Part shown: positions 35,183 to 60,428 of the stretch, piece after piece | Layout of the letters: each line of letters opens with the position of its first letter | Position numbering within the stretch: the first letter of the stretch is position 1 | Source of the DNA: Escherichia phage vB_EcoM_LNA4 | Strand: one strand, 5' to 3' | Length of the DNA: 64,000 nt | Sequence record: MZ311864.1 | Program-made: the position numbers and the translations under genes | Notes under the pieces: model-generated | Databases searched by the model: none | Told to the model about the DNA's origin: nothing | The model's input: only the letters and a program-made list of their open reading frames with translations

Positions 35183-35890
35183 TCATTTTGATTCCTCTTT
35201 ACGCCACTTGTAAGCACCATACACAGAGTTTAGCAGGAAAGTGACCCACATTGCAAGGTTTGCTGCTCCAGCACCTTCGTGGTGTAACGTCAGGTTAACC
35301 CACATACCTACCGCAACGATATTCACAATGATCCACACATACCACTGTTCAGCATAACGAGTCATCATTAAGTATGTTGCCAGTACAGACAGGATAGCTG
35401 TCGCTGCATCTGGACCTGGAAGTGAGCCTTTCAGCAGGGAGATCCCTTCGGCATACAAACCAATCACAATCAGTGTACTAATACCCACCAACCAACGTTG
35501 TTTTGTGGTCAGATAGTTCTTGATGACATCTGCACGTTCACCGTCAGCAGAAACGTTCAGCTTACGCGCCCAGATAATACCACCAATGACCTGCATAGGG
35601 GTGAATAGGACGGTGTACATGATCGTTTCGCCATACAGTTTATATGTGAATGACACATACGCATACAGCACTGTCGCGATGAAGCCCCAATAGTAGCTGG
35701 AAAGTTTACCTTTCGCAACCAAAATTGCACCGACGATACCTGTCACGGAAGAGATAAACTCCACCATAGTACCACCAGTGACGATAGAAACTGTCGCGAT
35801 GGATGCGGAACAGATCAGAAGCCAGAGGTATTCGAGTTTTGTCCAACCATAGAAGTCTGTCCAGGTTGTTTTTACGTATAGATTCATCAT
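35183..35890 (-). CDS. pnuC: nicotinamide riboside transporter PnuC-like
   Basis: 235 aa polytopic membrane protein; C-terminal LMMTRYAEQWYVWIIVNIVAVGMWV matches PnuC signature region. Confidence 0.75.
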   Translation of the reverse strand: MMNLYVKTTWTDFYGWTKLEYLWLLICSASIATVSIVTGGTMVEFISSVTGIVGAILVAKGKLSSYYWGFIATVLYAYVSFTYKLYGETIMYTVLFTPMQVIGGIIWARKLNVSADGERADVIKNYLTTKQRWLVGISTLIVIGLYAEGISLLKGSLPGPDAATAILSVLATYLMMTRYAEQWYVWIIVNIVAVGMWVNLTLHHEGAGAANLAMWVTFLLNSVYGAYKWRKEESK

Positions 35891-37496: not shown

Positions 37497-38570
37497 TTAT
37501 TCTCCTTTGATATTCAGCAAGTTACGGACAGCTTCTTCGGCCTTTTGAATACGATCTTCGTAATCACTGCCGGAGATAACCACCACCTTGCTTGTATCGT
37601 AAGATGCTCTGATCATTGTGTCAAGCAAAGAATGTGTTTCTTTACGCTTTTCTGGAGTATCCTGCAAGCGAAGAGGATCAGCAACCCACGGAACCTCTGG
37701 GGTGAGGAACAAGAACAAGTCATAGAAATTGTAGCCCTCTTCACGGCTCAGTGTCCGGAACAGCAGATCTGAGTAATCGATCTTGTCTGCACAAACACCA
37801 GAGAAGTGTGTGATCAGATTTGTGGTGTCGGAGAACATTACCCCACGGTCACCCCAACCTGCCACCTCCATCTCCTTCAGGCGGTGCTCCATTGCAATAC
37901 GCAGGTAATCCTCACGGGTCATTGCAAACTCGCTTGAATGATACTCACGCTCACAGATCAGCCTTCCGATCTCAGGAATCCAGGCAGCACCGAACGTGTG
38001 TGCCAAGTGTTCGGTCATGGTCGTTTTTCCTGTGCTCTCTACACCAATGATAGCCACCTTCTTAATGAAGCGCTTACGTGCAGGCCACGACAAGTGGTAG
38101 AAATTCTTGTACGGGTCATTACGGATCATTGTGGCTGAGACAGGAACAGCTTTACGTTCTGCGTCGATAACAACATGCTTCGCTTCAGGGAAGAACTCAC
38201 TGAAGTAAGACTCGTACTCCGGCTCAGAAGAGAAAGCAAAGTCGTACTTAACGAAAGGTTGTTTTTCACGGATCAGTTTTGCATAAGCAGCACCGCCTTC
38301 AGGGTATCCGGGGATATTCGACTCATCAACGTAGTCAACCTTCACGTTATCCAGACCCTCATCGGCAATAACATCCAGCAGGTCACGATAGCGGTCAGCA
38401 AGGCCCAACTTTGGACGAATCCACTCTGGTTGAGCGTCAACAAATTTCTGGTCATACGACAGGAACAGATACAGGCAACTTACCTGCGAGGCCGCCTGGC
38501 GAATGAACTCAATATGCCCGTTGGTCAGCGGTGCAAATTTTCCGAAGATAAGGCCGCGAGTCATAGTCAT
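37497..38570 (-). CDS. nadR: NadR-like bifunctional NMN adenylyltransferase / ribosylnicotinamide kinase
   Basis: ATG at 38570 with AGAAGG RBS; nucleotidyltransferase motif GKFAPLTNGHIEFI; P-loop IGVESTGKTT in C-terminal half. Confidence 0.75.
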   Translation of the reverse strand: MTMTRGLIFGKFAPLTNGHIEFIRQAASQVSCLYLFLSYDQKFVDAQPEWIRPKLGLADRYRDLLDVIADEGLDNVKVDYVDESNIPGYPEGGAAYAKLIREKQPFVKYDFAFSSEPEYESYFSEFFPEAKHVVIDAERKAVPVSATMIRNDPYKNFYHLSWPARKRFIKKVAIIGVESTGKTTMTEHLAHTFGAAWIPEIGRLICEREYHSSEFAMTREDYLRIAMEHRLKEMEVAGWGDRGVMFSDTTNLITHFSGVCADKIDYSDLLFRTLSREEGYNFYDLFLFLTPEVPWVADPLRLQDTPEKRKETHSLLDTMIRASYDTSKVVVISGSDYEDRIQKAEEAVRNLLNIKGE

Positions 38571-38571
38571 A

Positions 38572-38892
38572 TTATTGATCCTTCTGGCATTTGTAGACTT
38601 GTGACACACGGGTCACAGACTTTTTGGTTGGGTTGATAGATGACCCCTGATACCAGCGAGACTCTTCGCTCAGAACATTCCCCACCTGAGCATCCTTTTT
38701 AGGGATCACTGTGTCGATGCAGGTCTCACCCATACTATCCTTCATATGGGACCAAATGCTCAGAGAAAAACGCTCGATCTTGTTGCACACCTCGACCTTG
38801 CACATAGGTTCGGTCTGGAAATCATCATCTTCTTCCGCATGGGCGGCTCCAACAAAAGCCATAGCCAGCAGAGCAATCGTTAATTTTTTCAT
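38572..38892 (-). CDS. secreted small protein
   Basis: Signal peptide MKKLTIALLAMAFVGAAHA; several Cys. Confidence 0.5.
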   Translation of the reverse strand: MKKLTIALLAMAFVGAAHAEEDDDFQTEPMCKVEVCNKIERFSLSIWSHMKDSMGETCIDTVIPKKDAQVGNVLSEESRWYQGSSINPTKKSVTRVSQVYKCQKDQ

Positions 38893-40001: not shown

Positions 40002-40475
40002 TTAAATCCTCGCTTTGTTATTTACAATAGTGGAGATAACCGACTGATTAACTCCGTATAACCTTGCTAACGCTCTCGTTCCACGATCCCTTGAATACGG
40101 AACATATGCATCTCTGATCTCAGCCACTTGTAAATCTGTAAGCTTATGATGAGGATGCTCCTCATTCTTAACAGGCTTCAAAAGTCCGGTCTCTGAGGCA
40201 TGTTCCATATTCTCTTTTACGGTTGACCATTCGAGATTATCAACATGGTTGTTCTCTTTGTTACCGTCCTTGTGATTAACAAAGGGTTTGTCATCAGGGT
40301 TGGGAATATACTGCATTGCTACCAGTCTGTGAACAAGAAAGTTCCTAATCTTCCCATCTATAGTTGTATGAACCTTCATGTACCCATTTTTAAGACGGGT
40401 TTGTTTTATGACATTGCCCGTCTTTACCCTGGTAACAACCTTTCCGTCAACACTAACAACGAACAGGCTGTTCAT
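40002..40475 (-). CDS. HNH homing endonuclease (HNH_3-type)
   Basis: HRLVAMQYIPNPDDKPFVNHKDGNKENNHVDNLEWSTVKEN; C-terminal HTH-like region; AAGGAG RBS. Confidence 0.75.
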   Translation of the reverse strand: MNSLFVVSVDGKVVTRVKTGNVIKQTRLKNGYMKVHTTIDGKIRNFLVHRLVAMQYIPNPDDKPFVNHKDGNKENNHVDNLEWSTVKENMEHASETGLLKPVKNEEHPHHKLTDLQVAEIRDAYVPYSRDRGTRALARLYGVNQSVISTIVNNKARI

Positions 40476-54694: not shown

Positions 54695-54848
54695 GAATGA
54701 TCCTCGCTTTTTGAACTGAGAAGACAAACGTACCATGTTCCTCTACGTATTGTCTACCCATTTCTTCATCTTCGAAGATAAGAGTATCAACCTCAGACTT
54801 CACTGGCCTGTCCTTAACAGGCCGTGAGGTGCATACGATTAGCGCCAT
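54663..54848 (-). CDS. hypothetical small protein
   Basis: ATG overlaps RNA ligase stop (TAATG coupling). Confidence 0.35.
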   Translation of the reverse strand: MALIVCTSRPVKDRPVKSEVDTLIFEDEEMGRQYVEEHGTFVFSVQKARIIHAADTTEVRS

Positions 54849-55894
54849 TACAGAGGACTCTCGTTCAGCTTCTGCATGTACCAACCACGAGATTTGTTGC
54901 TGATGAACTTCGCAACATCCTTCATGGTCAGGGAGTTAGCTTCCAGAACATCGCCTTCTTCCTTGTTGATGTCACGGCTAACCCAGGCAATGAACTCACC
55001 GATCTTAGATTGGTCGAGACCAACTTCACCAAGAGCCTGCTCAAGGCGGTTCTCAGTCACAGCGTACTCAACGAACTCACGCATGTTCTGGAGCCGTACC
55101 GGGTCAACCTCTGCCAGGGTTTTAACCTTGGATACAGAGTGCTTCTCACCCTTCACTTTGAACCACAGGCCGGAGTCTTTAGCCAGTTCTGGTTGCAGCG
55201 GGGACCAAACGATACCCTCACCTACACCCTCAACACCAAAGTGTTTACCAACCGGGCAGGATGCTTCCACCTGCATCGTCAGGGTTGTCAGATCGTTCTG
55301 TACCTGCTCAGGTTCATTGAACGGAATATTCACGGACCAGAAACCAAAGTCAAGAACACTGAAGATCCGCTCTTGTGGCAGGCCAATGCCGTACTGGAAG
55401 TTTGGTGGCATCCAGTTCAGGGCGTTGCCCTCTTCATTGCGACCAACAGCAACACGGAAGATCGTGAAGAAAGGTTCAACCTCACTTACAGCCACACCTT
55501 TCTGGATACCACGACCAGCCCACTCACCAGCGATCTCAACCGGGAAGGAGAACGGTGTGCCGTTGCATTCGCATAGGTATTTAACCTGCTCCAGAAGTTC
55601 TTTGGTATCTTTACGCACCATGAACGCAGCAAAGCCGTTGTTGTCGTCACCGACTTGGACGATACGTTCTTTGGACTGGAAAACAACCTCATCTTCAGAG
55701 TGGAAGACAATGCTGCCATTGGTCCCGTGGATCTTAACCGTACCAATGTACGGGATCAGGTACTGATCCGGCGCAACAACCTTACGCTTGATGTTACCAT
55801 TCTCATCAATCCCGTCAAAGGTCAGACGATCATGGATTGCCTTAATCACTTGGCGGAACTGGTGAGTGCTTGGGTATTTAATAGGTTTAGTCAA
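54848..55894 (-). CDS. ATP-dependent RNA ligase, Rnl2 family
   Basis: Motif I KIHGTN, motif FGEWAGRGIQKGV, motif V WFKVKGEKH; TTG start at 55894 with AAGGAG RBS 7 nt upstream. Confidence 0.75.
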   Translation of the reverse strand: MTKPIKYPSTHQFRQVIKAIHDRLTFDGIDENGNIKRKVVAPDQYLIPYIGTVKIHGTNGSIVFHSEDEVVFQSKERIVQVGDDNNGFAAFMVRKDTKELLEQVKYLCECNGTPFSFPVEIAGEWAGRGIQKGVAVSEVEPFFTIFRVAVGRNEEGNALNWMPPNFQYGIGLPQERIFSVLDFGFWSVNIPFNEPEQVQNDLTTLTMQVEASCPVGKHFGVEGVGEGIVWSPLQPELAKDSGLWFKVKGEKHSVSKVKTLAEVDPVRLQNMREFVEYAVTENRLEQALGEVGLDQSKIGEFIAWVSRDINKEEGDVLEANSLTMKDVAKFISNKSRGWYMQKLNESPL

Positions 55895-56276
55895 CTTTAG
55901 ACTCCTTTTTAGGTGCAATCGCTTGTGTGATCAGGTTGTCGATGTCGTCAACCCACTCTGGGGTGCGTAGGAACAGCATCAGATTCATTGTCTGAAGCAA
56001 ATACGCACTGTTTTGTGTGATCGCATAGATATCGTAACCATCTACCAGCAGTCGTTCAACTGTCGATGTACGGATGGGCTTATTATCAAAGCCACGGCCT
56101 TGATGATCACGACCATCTAAAAAACCACAAATACAACGAGGCCAGACCTCTACGTGGGGACGGGCATTAACCACCACCCCAGCAAAGAGCTTACCACCGA
56201 TGAATTTTGGTTCAGGAACAGTCTGTGCCAGACGAATTGGATCACCAACACCAACCTCAGATTTACTCATTGTCAT
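55887..56276 (-). CDS. hypothetical protein
   Basis: ATG at 56276 with GAGGGG RBS. Confidence 0.4.
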   Translation of the reverse strand: MTMSKSEVGVGDPIRLAQTVPEPKFIGGKLFAGVVVNARPHVEVWPRCICGFLDGRDHQGRGFDNKPIRTSTVERLLVDGYDIYAITQNSAYLLQTMNLMLFLRTPEWVDDIDNLITQAIAPKKESKVD

Positions 56277-56767: not shown

Positions 56768-56967
56768 TATTCCTCCAGTTTCCAGCCGCGTTTATTAAGC
56801 CACTCGTCGATTTGAATCCCGTTGCCATCACCACTTGGCTTCTCAGCACCAAGCAATAACACAACAAAACTCTGTCCACGAGGGGCTGTATATGAGAACA
56901 CTGTGTTCCCAACATGAAGATCGATCTTTTTGGTATGTGCAACCATACCGTCTTTTAGTTCAATCAT
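56767..56967 (-). CDS. hypothetical small protein
   Basis: ATG at 56967 overlaps upstream stop (ATGA). Confidence 0.35.
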   Translation of the reverse strand: MIELKDGMVAHTKKIDLHVGNTVFSYTAPRGQSFVVLLLGAEKPSGDGNGIQIDEWLNKRGWKLEE

Positions 56968-57149
56968 TTCCAGTTCCCATTGAAAAGCCGCAGCACCAAG
57001 AGGTTCATGAAGTACAGGGGCCAAAGCAGGCCCATGAACACACCACCAAGAAGATCCATAGTGTCTAATCTCCAGAATTGCTGCGCTCTTTTCATGAAGA
57101 TATAAAACCCTACAAATGCGAACAGAAGATAGGTAATCCCAACCATCAC
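56964..57149 (-). CDS. small membrane protein
   Basis: 61 aa, two hydrophobic helices. Confidence 0.35.
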   Translation of the reverse strand: MMVGITYLLFAFVGFYIFMKRAQQFWRLDTMDLLGGVFMGLLWPLYFMNLLVLRLFNGNWK

Positions 57150-57637
57150 TTTTTCTCCGGAAGGATATAAACTGTTACATCACAATCCCAGAAAACAGAT
57201 TTGATCATCGCTTCAATGACGTTCCAGTCACCACCTGCAAGACCAGCACCGATTTTCGGGAAGCCGATTTTGTAGTCAGCCATAGAGCCGTCTGTAAAGC
57301 TCTGTAAGGCCTTCTTCATCTGATCCAACGAATCATACAGGGCATTGTAATCGAGGTCACGTAGGCCCTGTTTACGGCGATTATAACCATATTGCGAATA
57401 CAGATTAAATCCTGCGAGAGATCCGTCCTTCATGAAGGCCACAGTGAAGGTCCCAAGTTTGGCTTTATCACCTTTCTCGGTCTTCAGATCCGCAGCGTAC
57501 ATTTTAGGGAACGCTTCTTTGATCAGTGGAGCTATACCGCTACCCATTGTGCAATAACAATTGCAGCCATGCGCAAAAACATTAACCTCACCAGATTTCA
57601 CAGCCTCAATTAGGTCGCCTACTTTATACTTAAGCAT
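57146..57637 (-). CDS. macrodomain protein, TARG1/DarG-like ADP-ribosyl hydrolase family
   Basis: NVFAHGCNCYCTMGSGIAPLIKEAFP and KIGFPKIGAGLAGGDWNVIEAMIKSVF resemble TARG1-type macrodomain core motifs; GGAGGA RBS. Confidence 0.6.
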   Translation of the reverse strand: MLKYKVGDLIEAVKSGEVNVFAHGCNCYCTMGSGIAPLIKEAFPKMYAADLKTEKGDKAKLGTFTVAFMKDGSLAGFNLYSQYGYNRRKQGLRDLDYNALYDSLDQMKKALQSFTDGSMADYKIGFPKIGAGLAGGDWNVIEAMIKSVFWDCDVTVYILPEKK

Positions 57638-58140
57638 CAGTCCTCCACTATAATATCATGAATCGTTTTTACGTATGCTTGATAACATTCACTCGCTTCC
57701 TCAGCGGAGTCGAATGTTCCAAGGTGGATCTTACTATACACAGCATGGTATCTTAACCTAGTCCACCTTTTGTCTACGAATACACCACGGAATCCTGTTT
57801 GGTTCTTCTTTCCTCTGCTGTAATTGTAGACGTTTACAAACTTCTGGACATCCCTGAGGTTAGTAATACGATTGTTATCTTTTTGTCTGTCCTTGTGGTC
57901 AATAAAATAAGTGGGCCACACGCCGTAATAAAAAGCCCAGGCCACTCTGTGTGCCAAGAAGTAAAAACCTTTACCTTCAATCTTAACACCAAGCCTTACG
58001 TAACCGTCTTTTCTTTTTGTGCCTGCAACCTTTCCAAAATGACGACGAGCGAGAGGATTGATACACGTAAACAAACCTGTCTCAGGGTCATATGAGAAGG
58101 AAGATTTAAGCGCCTGTAATGCCTCTTCACTCTCCTTCAT
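57637..58140 (-). CDS. HNH endonuclease with AP2 domain
   Basis: LAHRVAWAFYYGVWPTYFIDHKDRQKDNNRITNL plus AP2-like GFRGVFVDKRWTRLRYHAVYSKIHLGTFDSAEEA. Confidence 0.75.
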   Translation of the reverse strand: MKESEEALQALKSSFSYDPETGLFTCINPLARRHFGKVAGTKRKDGYVRLGVKIEGKGFYFLAHRVAWAFYYGVWPTYFIDHKDRQKDNNRITNLRDVQKFVNVYNYSRGKKNQTGFRGVFVDKRWTRLRYHAVYSKIHLGTFDSAEEASECYQAYVKTIHDIIVED

Positions 58141-59154: not shown

Positions 59155-59376
59155 TCATTCGATCACGCTCCAGCCTTCATCCTGCCAGGATTCTCCACGA
59201 TACCAACCTGCCATAGGGCAACCGTCTTCTGCGTAGATACGACCACCAACCATTTCAAACCACTCATCACTGGTGAAATATTGGTTGCGTACACGCTTAC
59301 CTTCGCGCATGGCCTGCTGTGCTTCTTTCCAGGTTAATTTAGACACGGAATTGCCCCTTCTTGTTCTTGAAGCCAT
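59155..59376 (-). CDS. DUF2829-like small protein (possible Tad2-type sponge; tentative)
   Basis: 73 aa; pattern LTWKEAQQAMREGKRVRNQYF...GWYRGESWQDEGWSVIE recalled as resembling DUF2829. Confidence 0.35.
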   Translation of the reverse strand: MASRTRRGNSVSKLTWKEAQQAMREGKRVRNQYFTSDEWFEMVGGRIYAEDGCPMAGWYRGESWQDEGWSVIE

Positions 59377-59680
59377 TAGAGATCTTCTGACCAGCCAAGA
59401 ATTTCGGATTTGTCAGACGAGATTCAAAAGACTGACGGACCTTGTGTGCCAGCTTAGAGCAGTAATCCACATCGGACAGTGCTTCTTGGTTCGCTTTAAC
59501 ACGGATACGCTTCACACTCGGAACGATGGTCAGACCACCAAAGCCGTCAACGTAATAGAACTCGACCTCATAACCGTCAGTGGTCAGTTCGTTGAAGATT
59601 GGGAATGTCTGTTGCAGTGCCTCTTTATGTGCAAGAGACATCAGACGTTGTTGGTCGTTCAAAGTTTCAGTGATTTGCAT
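59339..59680 (-). CDS. hypothetical protein
   Basis: ATG at 59680 with GAGGA RBS. Confidence 0.4.
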   Translation of the reverse strand: MQITETLNDQQRLMSLAHKEALQQTFPIFNELTTDGYEVEFYYVDGFGGLTIVPSVKRIRVKANQEALSDVDYCSKLAHKVRQSFESRLTNPKFLAGQKISNGFKNKKGQFRV

Positions 59681-59738
59681 TGAGTTTATCCTCGTTTTGT
59701 TTGGTATGCACAAAGATTAACAGCCTCCGAAGAGGCTG

Positions 59739-60428
59739 TCAAATGTTTTTCGCAGGTTTTTTAGATGATCCTCGGTTGTAGGGTATTCCTCCCCACTCCA
59801 TGTTCTCAATTATATATCCATTGAAGCATGTCTCATCCCCACACTCGTGCTGTGTTTTTGTCAGGAATGTTATGTAATTTCGATCTTCTGTTACCATGTG
59901 TACACTGTACATTTCCCTGAACCTGTCACATCGCAAGATAGTTCCGGGGATGCTTACCTTATCCCTTGAAGGTTTGTAATAATTAGCCCGATCCTGGATA
60001 GACAGGTACGCACCAAGACAGGCGGCCTTCAGAGAGCAAGAGACCTTCAGATTATCAAAATCACCCCCGCTGATATACCACAGCAGGAGGGGTGGAGGAC
60101 AATCCTCAAACGCAACACCCGCCCATTCACCGAAGGGGAATATTCCCCTTTCGATAAAATTGAGGTGCCTGCGCTGTGTGTCTGTCTCCACATCAACATA
60201 ACTTCTTTTCTGCTTCAGGTCTATGCTTCTGTCGTAACTCTCCTCTCCCAACAAAGGTAAAGACCTTTTAAAGTAGTCTTCAGCAGCAAATTCAGGACTG
60301 TAGCTCTCCGAACCAAGGGAGATAACAGAGGCATAAGCCCATTCATCTCCACTGTTGATGCAGAGTTTAAGCTCATAAAACCCAAGCTCATGTTGTTGAC
60401 GATACAGAATCCAGCGATCTACAGACAC
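59739..60428 (-). CDS. hypothetical protein
   Basis: 229 aa ORF immediately downstream of AAA+ ATPase gene. Confidence 0.5.
   Translation of the reverse strand: MSVDRWILYRQQHELGFYELKLCINSGDEWAYASVISLGSESYSPEFAAEDYFKRSLPLLGEESYDRSIDLKQKRSYVDVETDTQRRHLNFIERGIFPFGEWAGVAFEDCPPPLLLWYISGGDFDNLKVSCSLKAACLGAYLSIQDRANYYKPSRDKVSIPGTILRCDRFREMYSVHMVTEDRNYITFLTKTQHECGDETCFNGYIIENMEWGGIPYNRGSSKKPAKNI

Follow-up and report, generated by a model that had tools for sequence, protein, structure and literature searches.

A stand-alone Tk.4/AdfM-type macrodomain in a Seunavirus phage, a candidate eraser of DarT2-made DNA ADP-ribosylation

A minus-strand gene in the 64,000-nucleotide stretch of DNA analysed here (the window) encodes a macrodomain protein of 163 residues. 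By analogy with published relatives, we consider it likely that this protein is an ADP-ribosyl glycohydrolase of Tk.4/AdfM type, similar to an orphan antitoxin, which would remove DarT2-made ADP-ribose from thymidines of single-stranded phage DNA by the route proposed for SCO6735. The gene, the fold and class of its product, the composition of the active site, the homology to Tk.4 and purifying selection are directly supported by our data. The gene and its immediate surroundings are the following:

57146..57637, minus strand: gene of the stand-alone macrodomain protein (Tk.4/AdfM-type, 163 aa), an ATG to TGA open reading frame
57641..57646, minus strand: Shine-Dalgarno-like GGAGGA, 3 nt 5' of the macrodomain gene ATG, read directly from the sequence
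57637..58140, minus strand: HNH_3 endonuclease whose C-terminus has a weak AP2-like DNA-binding domain; immediate upstream neighbour of the macrodomain gene (TGATG overlap)
56964..57149, minus strand: predicted membrane protein of 61 aa, its start overlapping the macrodomain stop codon

The start codon of the macrodomain gene overlaps the TGA of the upstream frame (TGATG) and its stop codon overlaps the start of the downstream 61-aa frame, so the gene lies within a tightly packed, translationally coupled run on the minus strand. Comparison with four orthologs from Vequintavirinae gave dS of 0.6-1.1 and dN of 0.05-0.09. The resulting dN/dS of 0.057-0.085 shows that purifying selection acts strongly on 57146..57637, which is a real gene. 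A promoter scan brought no excess (7 found, 9.2 expected in shuffled sequence). Farther upstream, a strong terminator-like hairpin with an 11-bp stem, TTCG loop and T-rich tail (59717..59742, minus strand) is positioned between the frames 59739..60428 and 59339..59713; the transcription unit to which the macrodomain gene belongs probably starts here.

The preliminary description had recognized the protein by two core blocks, and both are found verbatim at residues 23-36 and 128-149. The Pfam Macro family (PF01661) matches residues 23-140 with 25.9 bits against a gathering cutoff of 22, and PHROG 335 matches with 1.3e-62. Another Pfam match, to HBS1_N, is spurious (16.9 bits, cutoff 26.4). When a profile made from 67 homologs was compared with the PDB, it matched exclusively ALC1/TARG1-like macrodomains: BT1257 (E-value 3.7e-21), SCO6735 (5.7e-18), TARG1 (2.1e-15), Poa1p (1.3e-10) and DarG (3.8e-09). 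Fold prediction had been named beforehand as a test that could refute the assignment, and its outcome is macrodomain-like. The AlphaFold2 model (pLDDT 94.6, pTM 0.90) contains the three-layer alpha/beta/alpha macro fold, and Foldseek ranks TARG1 first among its neighbours (E 4.7e-12, TM 0.74-0.87). In both structure and sequence, the protein is nearer to TARG1, DarG, Poa1p and SCO6735 than to the MacroD, PARG and macroH2A classes. On sequence and predicted model, we assign it to the ALC1/TARG1/DarG-like class of macrodomains.

Residue equivalences were taken from a MAFFT sequence alignment with TARG1, two DarG macrodomains, PhiKZ gp104, SCO6735, BT1257 and T4 Tk.4, and conservation was counted in 121 phage and metagenome homologs. 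Four segments are referred to below:

57530..57571, minus strand: residues 23-36, HGCNCYCTMGSGIA, with H23, N26 and the G32-S-G34 loop (alignment and conservation)
57449..57490, minus strand: residues 50-63, DLKTEKGDKAKLGT, with the family-specific D50, T53, K60 and G62 (invariance and alignment)
57359..57409, minus strand: residues 77-93, FNLYSQYGYNRRKQGLR, a strand end with Q82 followed by the long basic "mobile loop" R87 R88 K89 (alignment and conservation)
57191..57256, minus strand: residues 128-149, KIGAGLAGGDWNVIEAMIKSVF, the phosphate-binding loop G130-A-G132-L-A134-G-G136 and the next helix (alignment and conservation)

N26 is the distal-ribose asparagine and aligns with N27 of SCO6735 and N23 of PhiKZ gp104. 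Q82 shares its column with TARG1 K84, DarG K80 and SCO6735 Q85; this placing agrees with a structure-based alignment that likewise pairs Gln85 of SCO6735 with the catalytic lysines (PMC9411070). The column of TARG1 D125 is occupied by A134, and G130 and G132 correspond to G126 and G128 of SCO6735. All 121 homologs keep N26, G34, Q82 and G136, while H23 is present in 116, G130 in 117 and G132 in 118 of them. The loop following Q82 has 14 residues in 105/121 homologs, at least three lysines or arginines in 95/121 and R88 in 110/121; according to the alignment, that of the 163-aa protein is 6 residues longer than the DarG or TARG1 loop. Position 24 is less uniform (G in 76 homologs, C in 33, Q in 12), and the glycine found here stands against V25 of SCO6735.

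These features are to be read against what was established for SCO6735. Enzymes of its type carry Gln at the position of the catalytic Lys, stabilised by a conserved Asn (PMC9411070); their basic mobile loop is about 5 residues longer than that of DarG/TARG1, and the backbone of Val/Ile25 positions the proposed catalytic water. In SCO6735, activity is lost or almost lost in the mutants Q85A and N27S and reduced in G128E, and the mobile-loop mutation K89E lowers activity on DNA (PMC9411070). For equivalents of the N26 region, mutational data exist in SCO6735 and also in PhiKZ gp104 (PMC13309987). As judged from the alignment, the 163-aa protein has every SCO6735 residue that is important by mutagenesis, with the exception of V25. 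The role proposed for V25 is backbone-based, and the different side chain at G24 may be unimportant. Because the catalytic lysine is replaced by Q82, and the aspartate of TARG1 by A134, the lysine chemistry of TARG1 (a Schiff-base mechanism) and DarG cannot apply. By its composition, the predicted active site is of the Gln type, as in SCO6735 and Tk.4. In addition, D50, T53, K60 and G62 are invariant in the 121 phage and metagenome homologs, in 80/80 bacterial homologs and in T4 Tk.4, and the alignment finds D50, T53 and K60 missing from SCO6735, BT1257, TARG1 and DarG. The Gln-type site common to Tk.4 and SCO6735 and the family-specific D50/T53/K60 motif are the modest new points of this comparison.

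The connection to DarT comes from published relatives. The gene tk.4 alone emerged when T4 was put through a transposon screen on a host with DarTG2. Its clean deletion made T4 sensitive to DarTG2, and it received the name adfM, for anti-DarT factor Macrodomain (bioRxiv 10.1101/2025.11.20.689424, a 2025 preprint whose evidence is genetic only). The macrodomain gp104 of PhiKZ, independently named AdfM, frees a TNTC oligonucleotide of the ADP-ribose attached by DarT2; it also relieves the toxicity of DarT2, and the phage needs it in hosts with DarTG2 (PMC13309987). SCO6735 cleaves thymidine-linked ADP-ribose on DNA and protects against DarT, although it has no DarT partner (PMC9411070). TARG1 also removes thymidine- and uracil-linked ADP-ribose. 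The results on Tk.4, gp104 and SCO6735 lend support, by analogy, to the preliminary suggestion that a phage copy could reverse DarT-type DNA ADP-ribosylation. The literature already contains the eraser idea for a homolog, and annotations of the gene family exist as well.

From these relatives we infer the substrate, biological target and chemistry of the 163-aa protein. The gene would be expressed early, as suggested by its place in a rIIA-proximal cluster of small genes. In a host with the DarTG2 defence, thymidines of phage ssDNA would be ADP-ribosylated by DarT2. The modified strand would be clamped by the basic loop (R87, R88, K89). Of the ADP-ribose, the diphosphate would rest in the G130-G136 loop and the adenine against D8, and the distal ribose would be engaged at its ring oxygen by Q82, locked there by N26. 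A water positioned by the backbone would then protonate thymine, and the N-glycosidic bond between ribose and thymine would be hydrolysed, which is the route proposed for SCO6735. Removal of ADP-ribose would restore replicable DNA, and replication could continue on DarTG2 hosts. It is conceivable, too, that the protein works mainly without catalysis and either binds and blocks DarT2 or sequesters an immune signal derived from ADP-ribose; to this we give very little credence.

SCO6735 also hydrolyses protein (Glu) ADP-ribosylation on PARP1 E988Q (PMC9411070) and acts on U-ADPr in ssRNA, so DNA thymidine need not be the sole or the main substrate of the 163-aa protein. Its main substrates might be Glu/Asp-linked ADP-ribose on proteins, or U-ADPr on RNA, and its opponents other ADP-ribosyltransferase toxins or defences. 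Such a broader or different macromolecular eraser would be in line with that versatility of a Gln-type enzyme, with the extra invariant D50/T53/K60 motif of the family, and with the 80 closest bacterial homologs, stand-alone genes around which a one-query search over about 5 kb detected no DarT2. Nevertheless, we find it unlikely. Among family members, a phenotype is reported only for T4 Tk.4, and it is directed against DarTG2; we know of no bacterial defence based on a uracil ADP-ribosyltransferase. T4 carries Tk.4 and is still strongly restricted by CmdTAC, an mRNA ADP-ribosyltransferase. SCO6735 leaves 2'-OH RNA ADPr untouched, and 5'-phosphate-linked ADPr as well in the reported assays; on the latter point, the discussion of the source paper is worded differently. 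Reversal of CmdTAC was itself weighed and rejected as a function, both for the restriction of T4 and because the adenine-ADPr mark is described as irreversible.

Removal of DarT2-made ADP-ribose, the reading we favour, has further to be seen in the context of the phage lineage. Over the 3 kb around the macrodomain gene, identity is 93.6% with GAP31, a phage of Cronobacter, and 84-86% with the phages 4MG of E. coli and PVP-SE1 of Salmonella; the three belong to genus Seunavirus, subfamily Vequintavirinae. By this sequence similarity, the source phage of the window is classified as a GAP31/PVP-SE1-like Seunavirus. The position of the macrodomain gene is conserved, between RNA ligase 2 and a MoxR-like ATPase and downstream of rIIA. 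Two more genes of the window belong to this part of the description:

54848..55918, minus strand: RNA ligase 2 (RnlB-type, PF09414), 1.2 kb downstream of the macrodomain gene, with five small frames without family matches in between
40002..40475, minus strand: second HNH_3 frame, adjoining the DNA polymerase gene

The HNH_3 endonuclease directly upstream of the macrodomain gene has its counterpart in gp231 of PVP-SE1. GAP31 and 4MG have an unrelated gene of 170 aa in its place, Klebsiella phage DP lacks it, and the endonuclease is probably a mobile homing-endonuclease insertion. On the other side, a small gene follows at the equivalent place in PVP-SE1 (gp233, with two TM helices), GAP31 (GAP31_012) and 4MG (gp088), in each case annotated as a membrane protein; Klebsiella phage DP has an unnamed 58-aa frame there. 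By gene order and overlap, the predicted 61-aa membrane protein is a conserved, translationally coupled partner of the macrodomain gene.

In Seunavirus genomes, the orthologs are labelled "phosphatase" or "putative phosphatase", and the annotation of PVP-SE1 already records similarity to "Tk.4" of a T4-like phage. The label brings to mind a small-molecule hydrolase, either an ADP-ribose-1''-phosphate phosphatase, as the wording implies, or an O-acetyl-ADP-ribose deacetylase, which would serve RNA repair or NAD+ recycling. The label derives from the name of the A1pp domain and not from an assay, and we correct it here. The genome annotation of GAP31 contains no ADP-ribosyltransferase, KptA (Tpt1) or 2H phosphoesterase, which weakens the reading as Appr1p phosphatase in RNA repair and, equally, the thought that the protein reverses the action of an ADP-ribosyltransferase of the phage itself. 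Ligation of Rnl2 type leaves no 2'-phosphate, and the basic mobile loop fits a nucleic-acid substrate. We therefore regard a small-molecule hydrolase as quite improbable. The relatives also encode RNA ligase 1 and a tRNA nucleotidyltransferase elsewhere in their genomes.

The favoured removal of DarT2-made ADP-ribose from DNA can also be viewed beside the NAD+ genes of the phage. Two of them lie within the window:

35183..35890, minus strand: PnuC-like NMN transporter (PF04973, 3e-37)
37497..38609, minus strand: NadR-like bifunctional NMN adenylyltransferase/ribosylnicotinamide kinase (PF01467 and PF13521)

GAP31 and PVP-SE1 encode a NADAR protein, NAMPT, PRPP synthetase, NadR-like NMNAT and PnuC; in GAP31, the genes of NAMPT, PRPP synthetase and the NADAR protein lie outside the stretch which matches the window. 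NADAR is the class of T4 AdfN, which counters DarTG1 (PMC11825919). Genes of the window and of GAP31 combined look like a toolkit for NAD+ reconstitution, as used by phages against NAD+-depleting defences. With its macrodomain, the salvage genes of the window and the NADAR proteins of the relatives, this lineage is heavily equipped for conflicts over NAD+ and ADP-ribose.

The family is by no means restricted to these phages. Homologs were found in 2969/50,697 phage records, among them Tevenvirinae, Vequintavirinae and phages of Pseudomonas, Vibrio and Acinetobacter. An exhaustive HMMER search returned 6,414 representatives of 50%-identity clusters at E <= 1e-3 (2,414 at E <= 1e-10), and the best 150 of them are mostly 150-170 aa long. 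In a minority (P0185, P0187, P0262, P0250 and P0258), the macrodomain forms the N- or C-terminal part of a larger protein of 320-400 aa. A search of GTDB genomes gave 466 stretches with relatives, of which the best 80 (L010-L089) come from many phyla, share 39-48% identity and are single-domain genes with a median of 151 aa; H23, G24, N26, D50, T53, K60 and Q82 are kept in all of them. No DarT2 was detected within about 5 kb of these 80 genes by tblastn with a single query, a search of limited sensitivity, which argues that the family is not simply captured DarG. For these nearest bacterial relatives, an origin of the Tk.4-type clade from an intact DarTG operon was rejected on the same one-query search. 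No conserved neighbours emerged across the 80 loci, where the best cluster was an AraC-like regulator in 9/80. NADAR/YbiA-like neighbours (e.g. 6502..7113 of L042; recognized by motif inspection only) and NadE-type NAD+ synthetase-like neighbours occur in 5/80 loci each.

We may speculate that Tk.4-type proteins form a separate and very widespread family of stand-alone macrodomains, marked by Gln in place of Lys and by Asp50-x-x-Thr53...Lys60, whose substrates are wider than or different from DarT2-modified thymidine, for example other base-linked ADP-ribose on DNA or RNA. This is a doubtful proposal at present. If it is true, the phage macrodomain would work against more than a single ADP-ribosylating defence.

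Comparison with known systems places the 163-aa protein closest to Tk.4 of T4 (NP_049723), with BLASTP E of 1e-28 and 36% identity over 150 of 163 residues. The model of tk.4 from Acinetobacter phage 133 matches with TM of 0.83. Both Tk.4 and our protein are phage-encoded, stand-alone, about 155-163 aa long and placed among small early genes; they have in common the signatures HGCNC...MGSG, AD..T...KLG, NLYxQ and GAG..G.W, and both lineages, T4 and Seunavirus, possess a NADAR protein. The parallel has its limits, among which we count the modest identity and the mobile loop of Tk.4, shorter by 6 residues (QPGP against YGYNRRKQGLR). Further, Tk.4 has GIGKG where our protein has GLAGG, it comes from Tevenvirinae and not Vequintavirinae, and a phenotype is reported for Tk.4 alone (in the preprint). 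Another anti-DarT factor, AdfB of ICP1, was dismissed as a relative, as it is not a macrodomain.

SCO6735 (Streptomyces coelicolor, PDB 5E3B) and BT1257 (Bacteroides, PDB 2FG1/2AFC) are Gln-type ALC1-like macrodomains as well, and their subclass is the nearest one with solved structures. They share 24-27% identity with the 163-aa protein, which has G24 for V25 and alone has D50/T53/K60; both are encoded on bacterial chromosomes and induced by DNA damage, whereas ours is a phage gene. Human TARG1/OARD1 (PDB 4J5S) is likewise a single domain, with 139-146 residues in solved chains against 163 here, but its K84/D125 dyad is replaced by Q82/A134. As far as the alignment goes, the protein is not TARG1 because this dyad is absent.

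DarG (PDB 5M3I, 5M31, 7OMU) and PhiKZ gp104 carry the catalytic Lys of FPTK where the 163-aa protein has Q82, its NLYSQ being aligned with NFPTK of DarG. The DarT-binding C-terminal domain of DarG is missing from our protein; correspondingly, the DarG equivalog of NCBIfam (NF048014) reaches only 34.7 bits against a cutoff of 250 and covers only profile positions 2-145 of 338. The PADLOC model of DarG gives 132.9 bits to PhiKZ gp104, which is Lys-type, DarG-like and 17-20% identical to the 163-aa protein, compared with 39.6 bits for the latter and 36.0 for Tk.4. A tblastn search of the window with DarT2 of P. aeruginosa 505 (PMC13309987), again a single query of limited sensitivity, gave no match (best E 5.5). 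Since it lacks the catalytic Lys and the C-terminal domain and no DarT was detected nearby, the protein is not DarG. Of the preliminary TARG1/DarG-like label, the class therefore stands, in fold as well as sequence, and strict identity with TARG1 or DarG falls with the missing catalytic Lys, Asp and C-terminal domain.

Taken together, the sequence comparisons indicate that the 163-aa protein fits the phage Tk.4/AdfM family and a Gln-type, SCO6735-like mechanism. Active sites of phage AdfM proteins appear to be of two types, with Lys in PhiKZ gp104, as in DarG, and with Gln in T4 Tk.4 and the protein described here, as in SCO6735. The distinction matters for inhibitor design, for prediction of substrates and for predicting which phages escape DarTG2. 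If the analogy holds, AdfM counter-defence would extend from T4-like and nucleus-forming jumbo phages to Vequintavirinae, which are broad-host-range phages of Enterobacteriaceae used in biocontrol.
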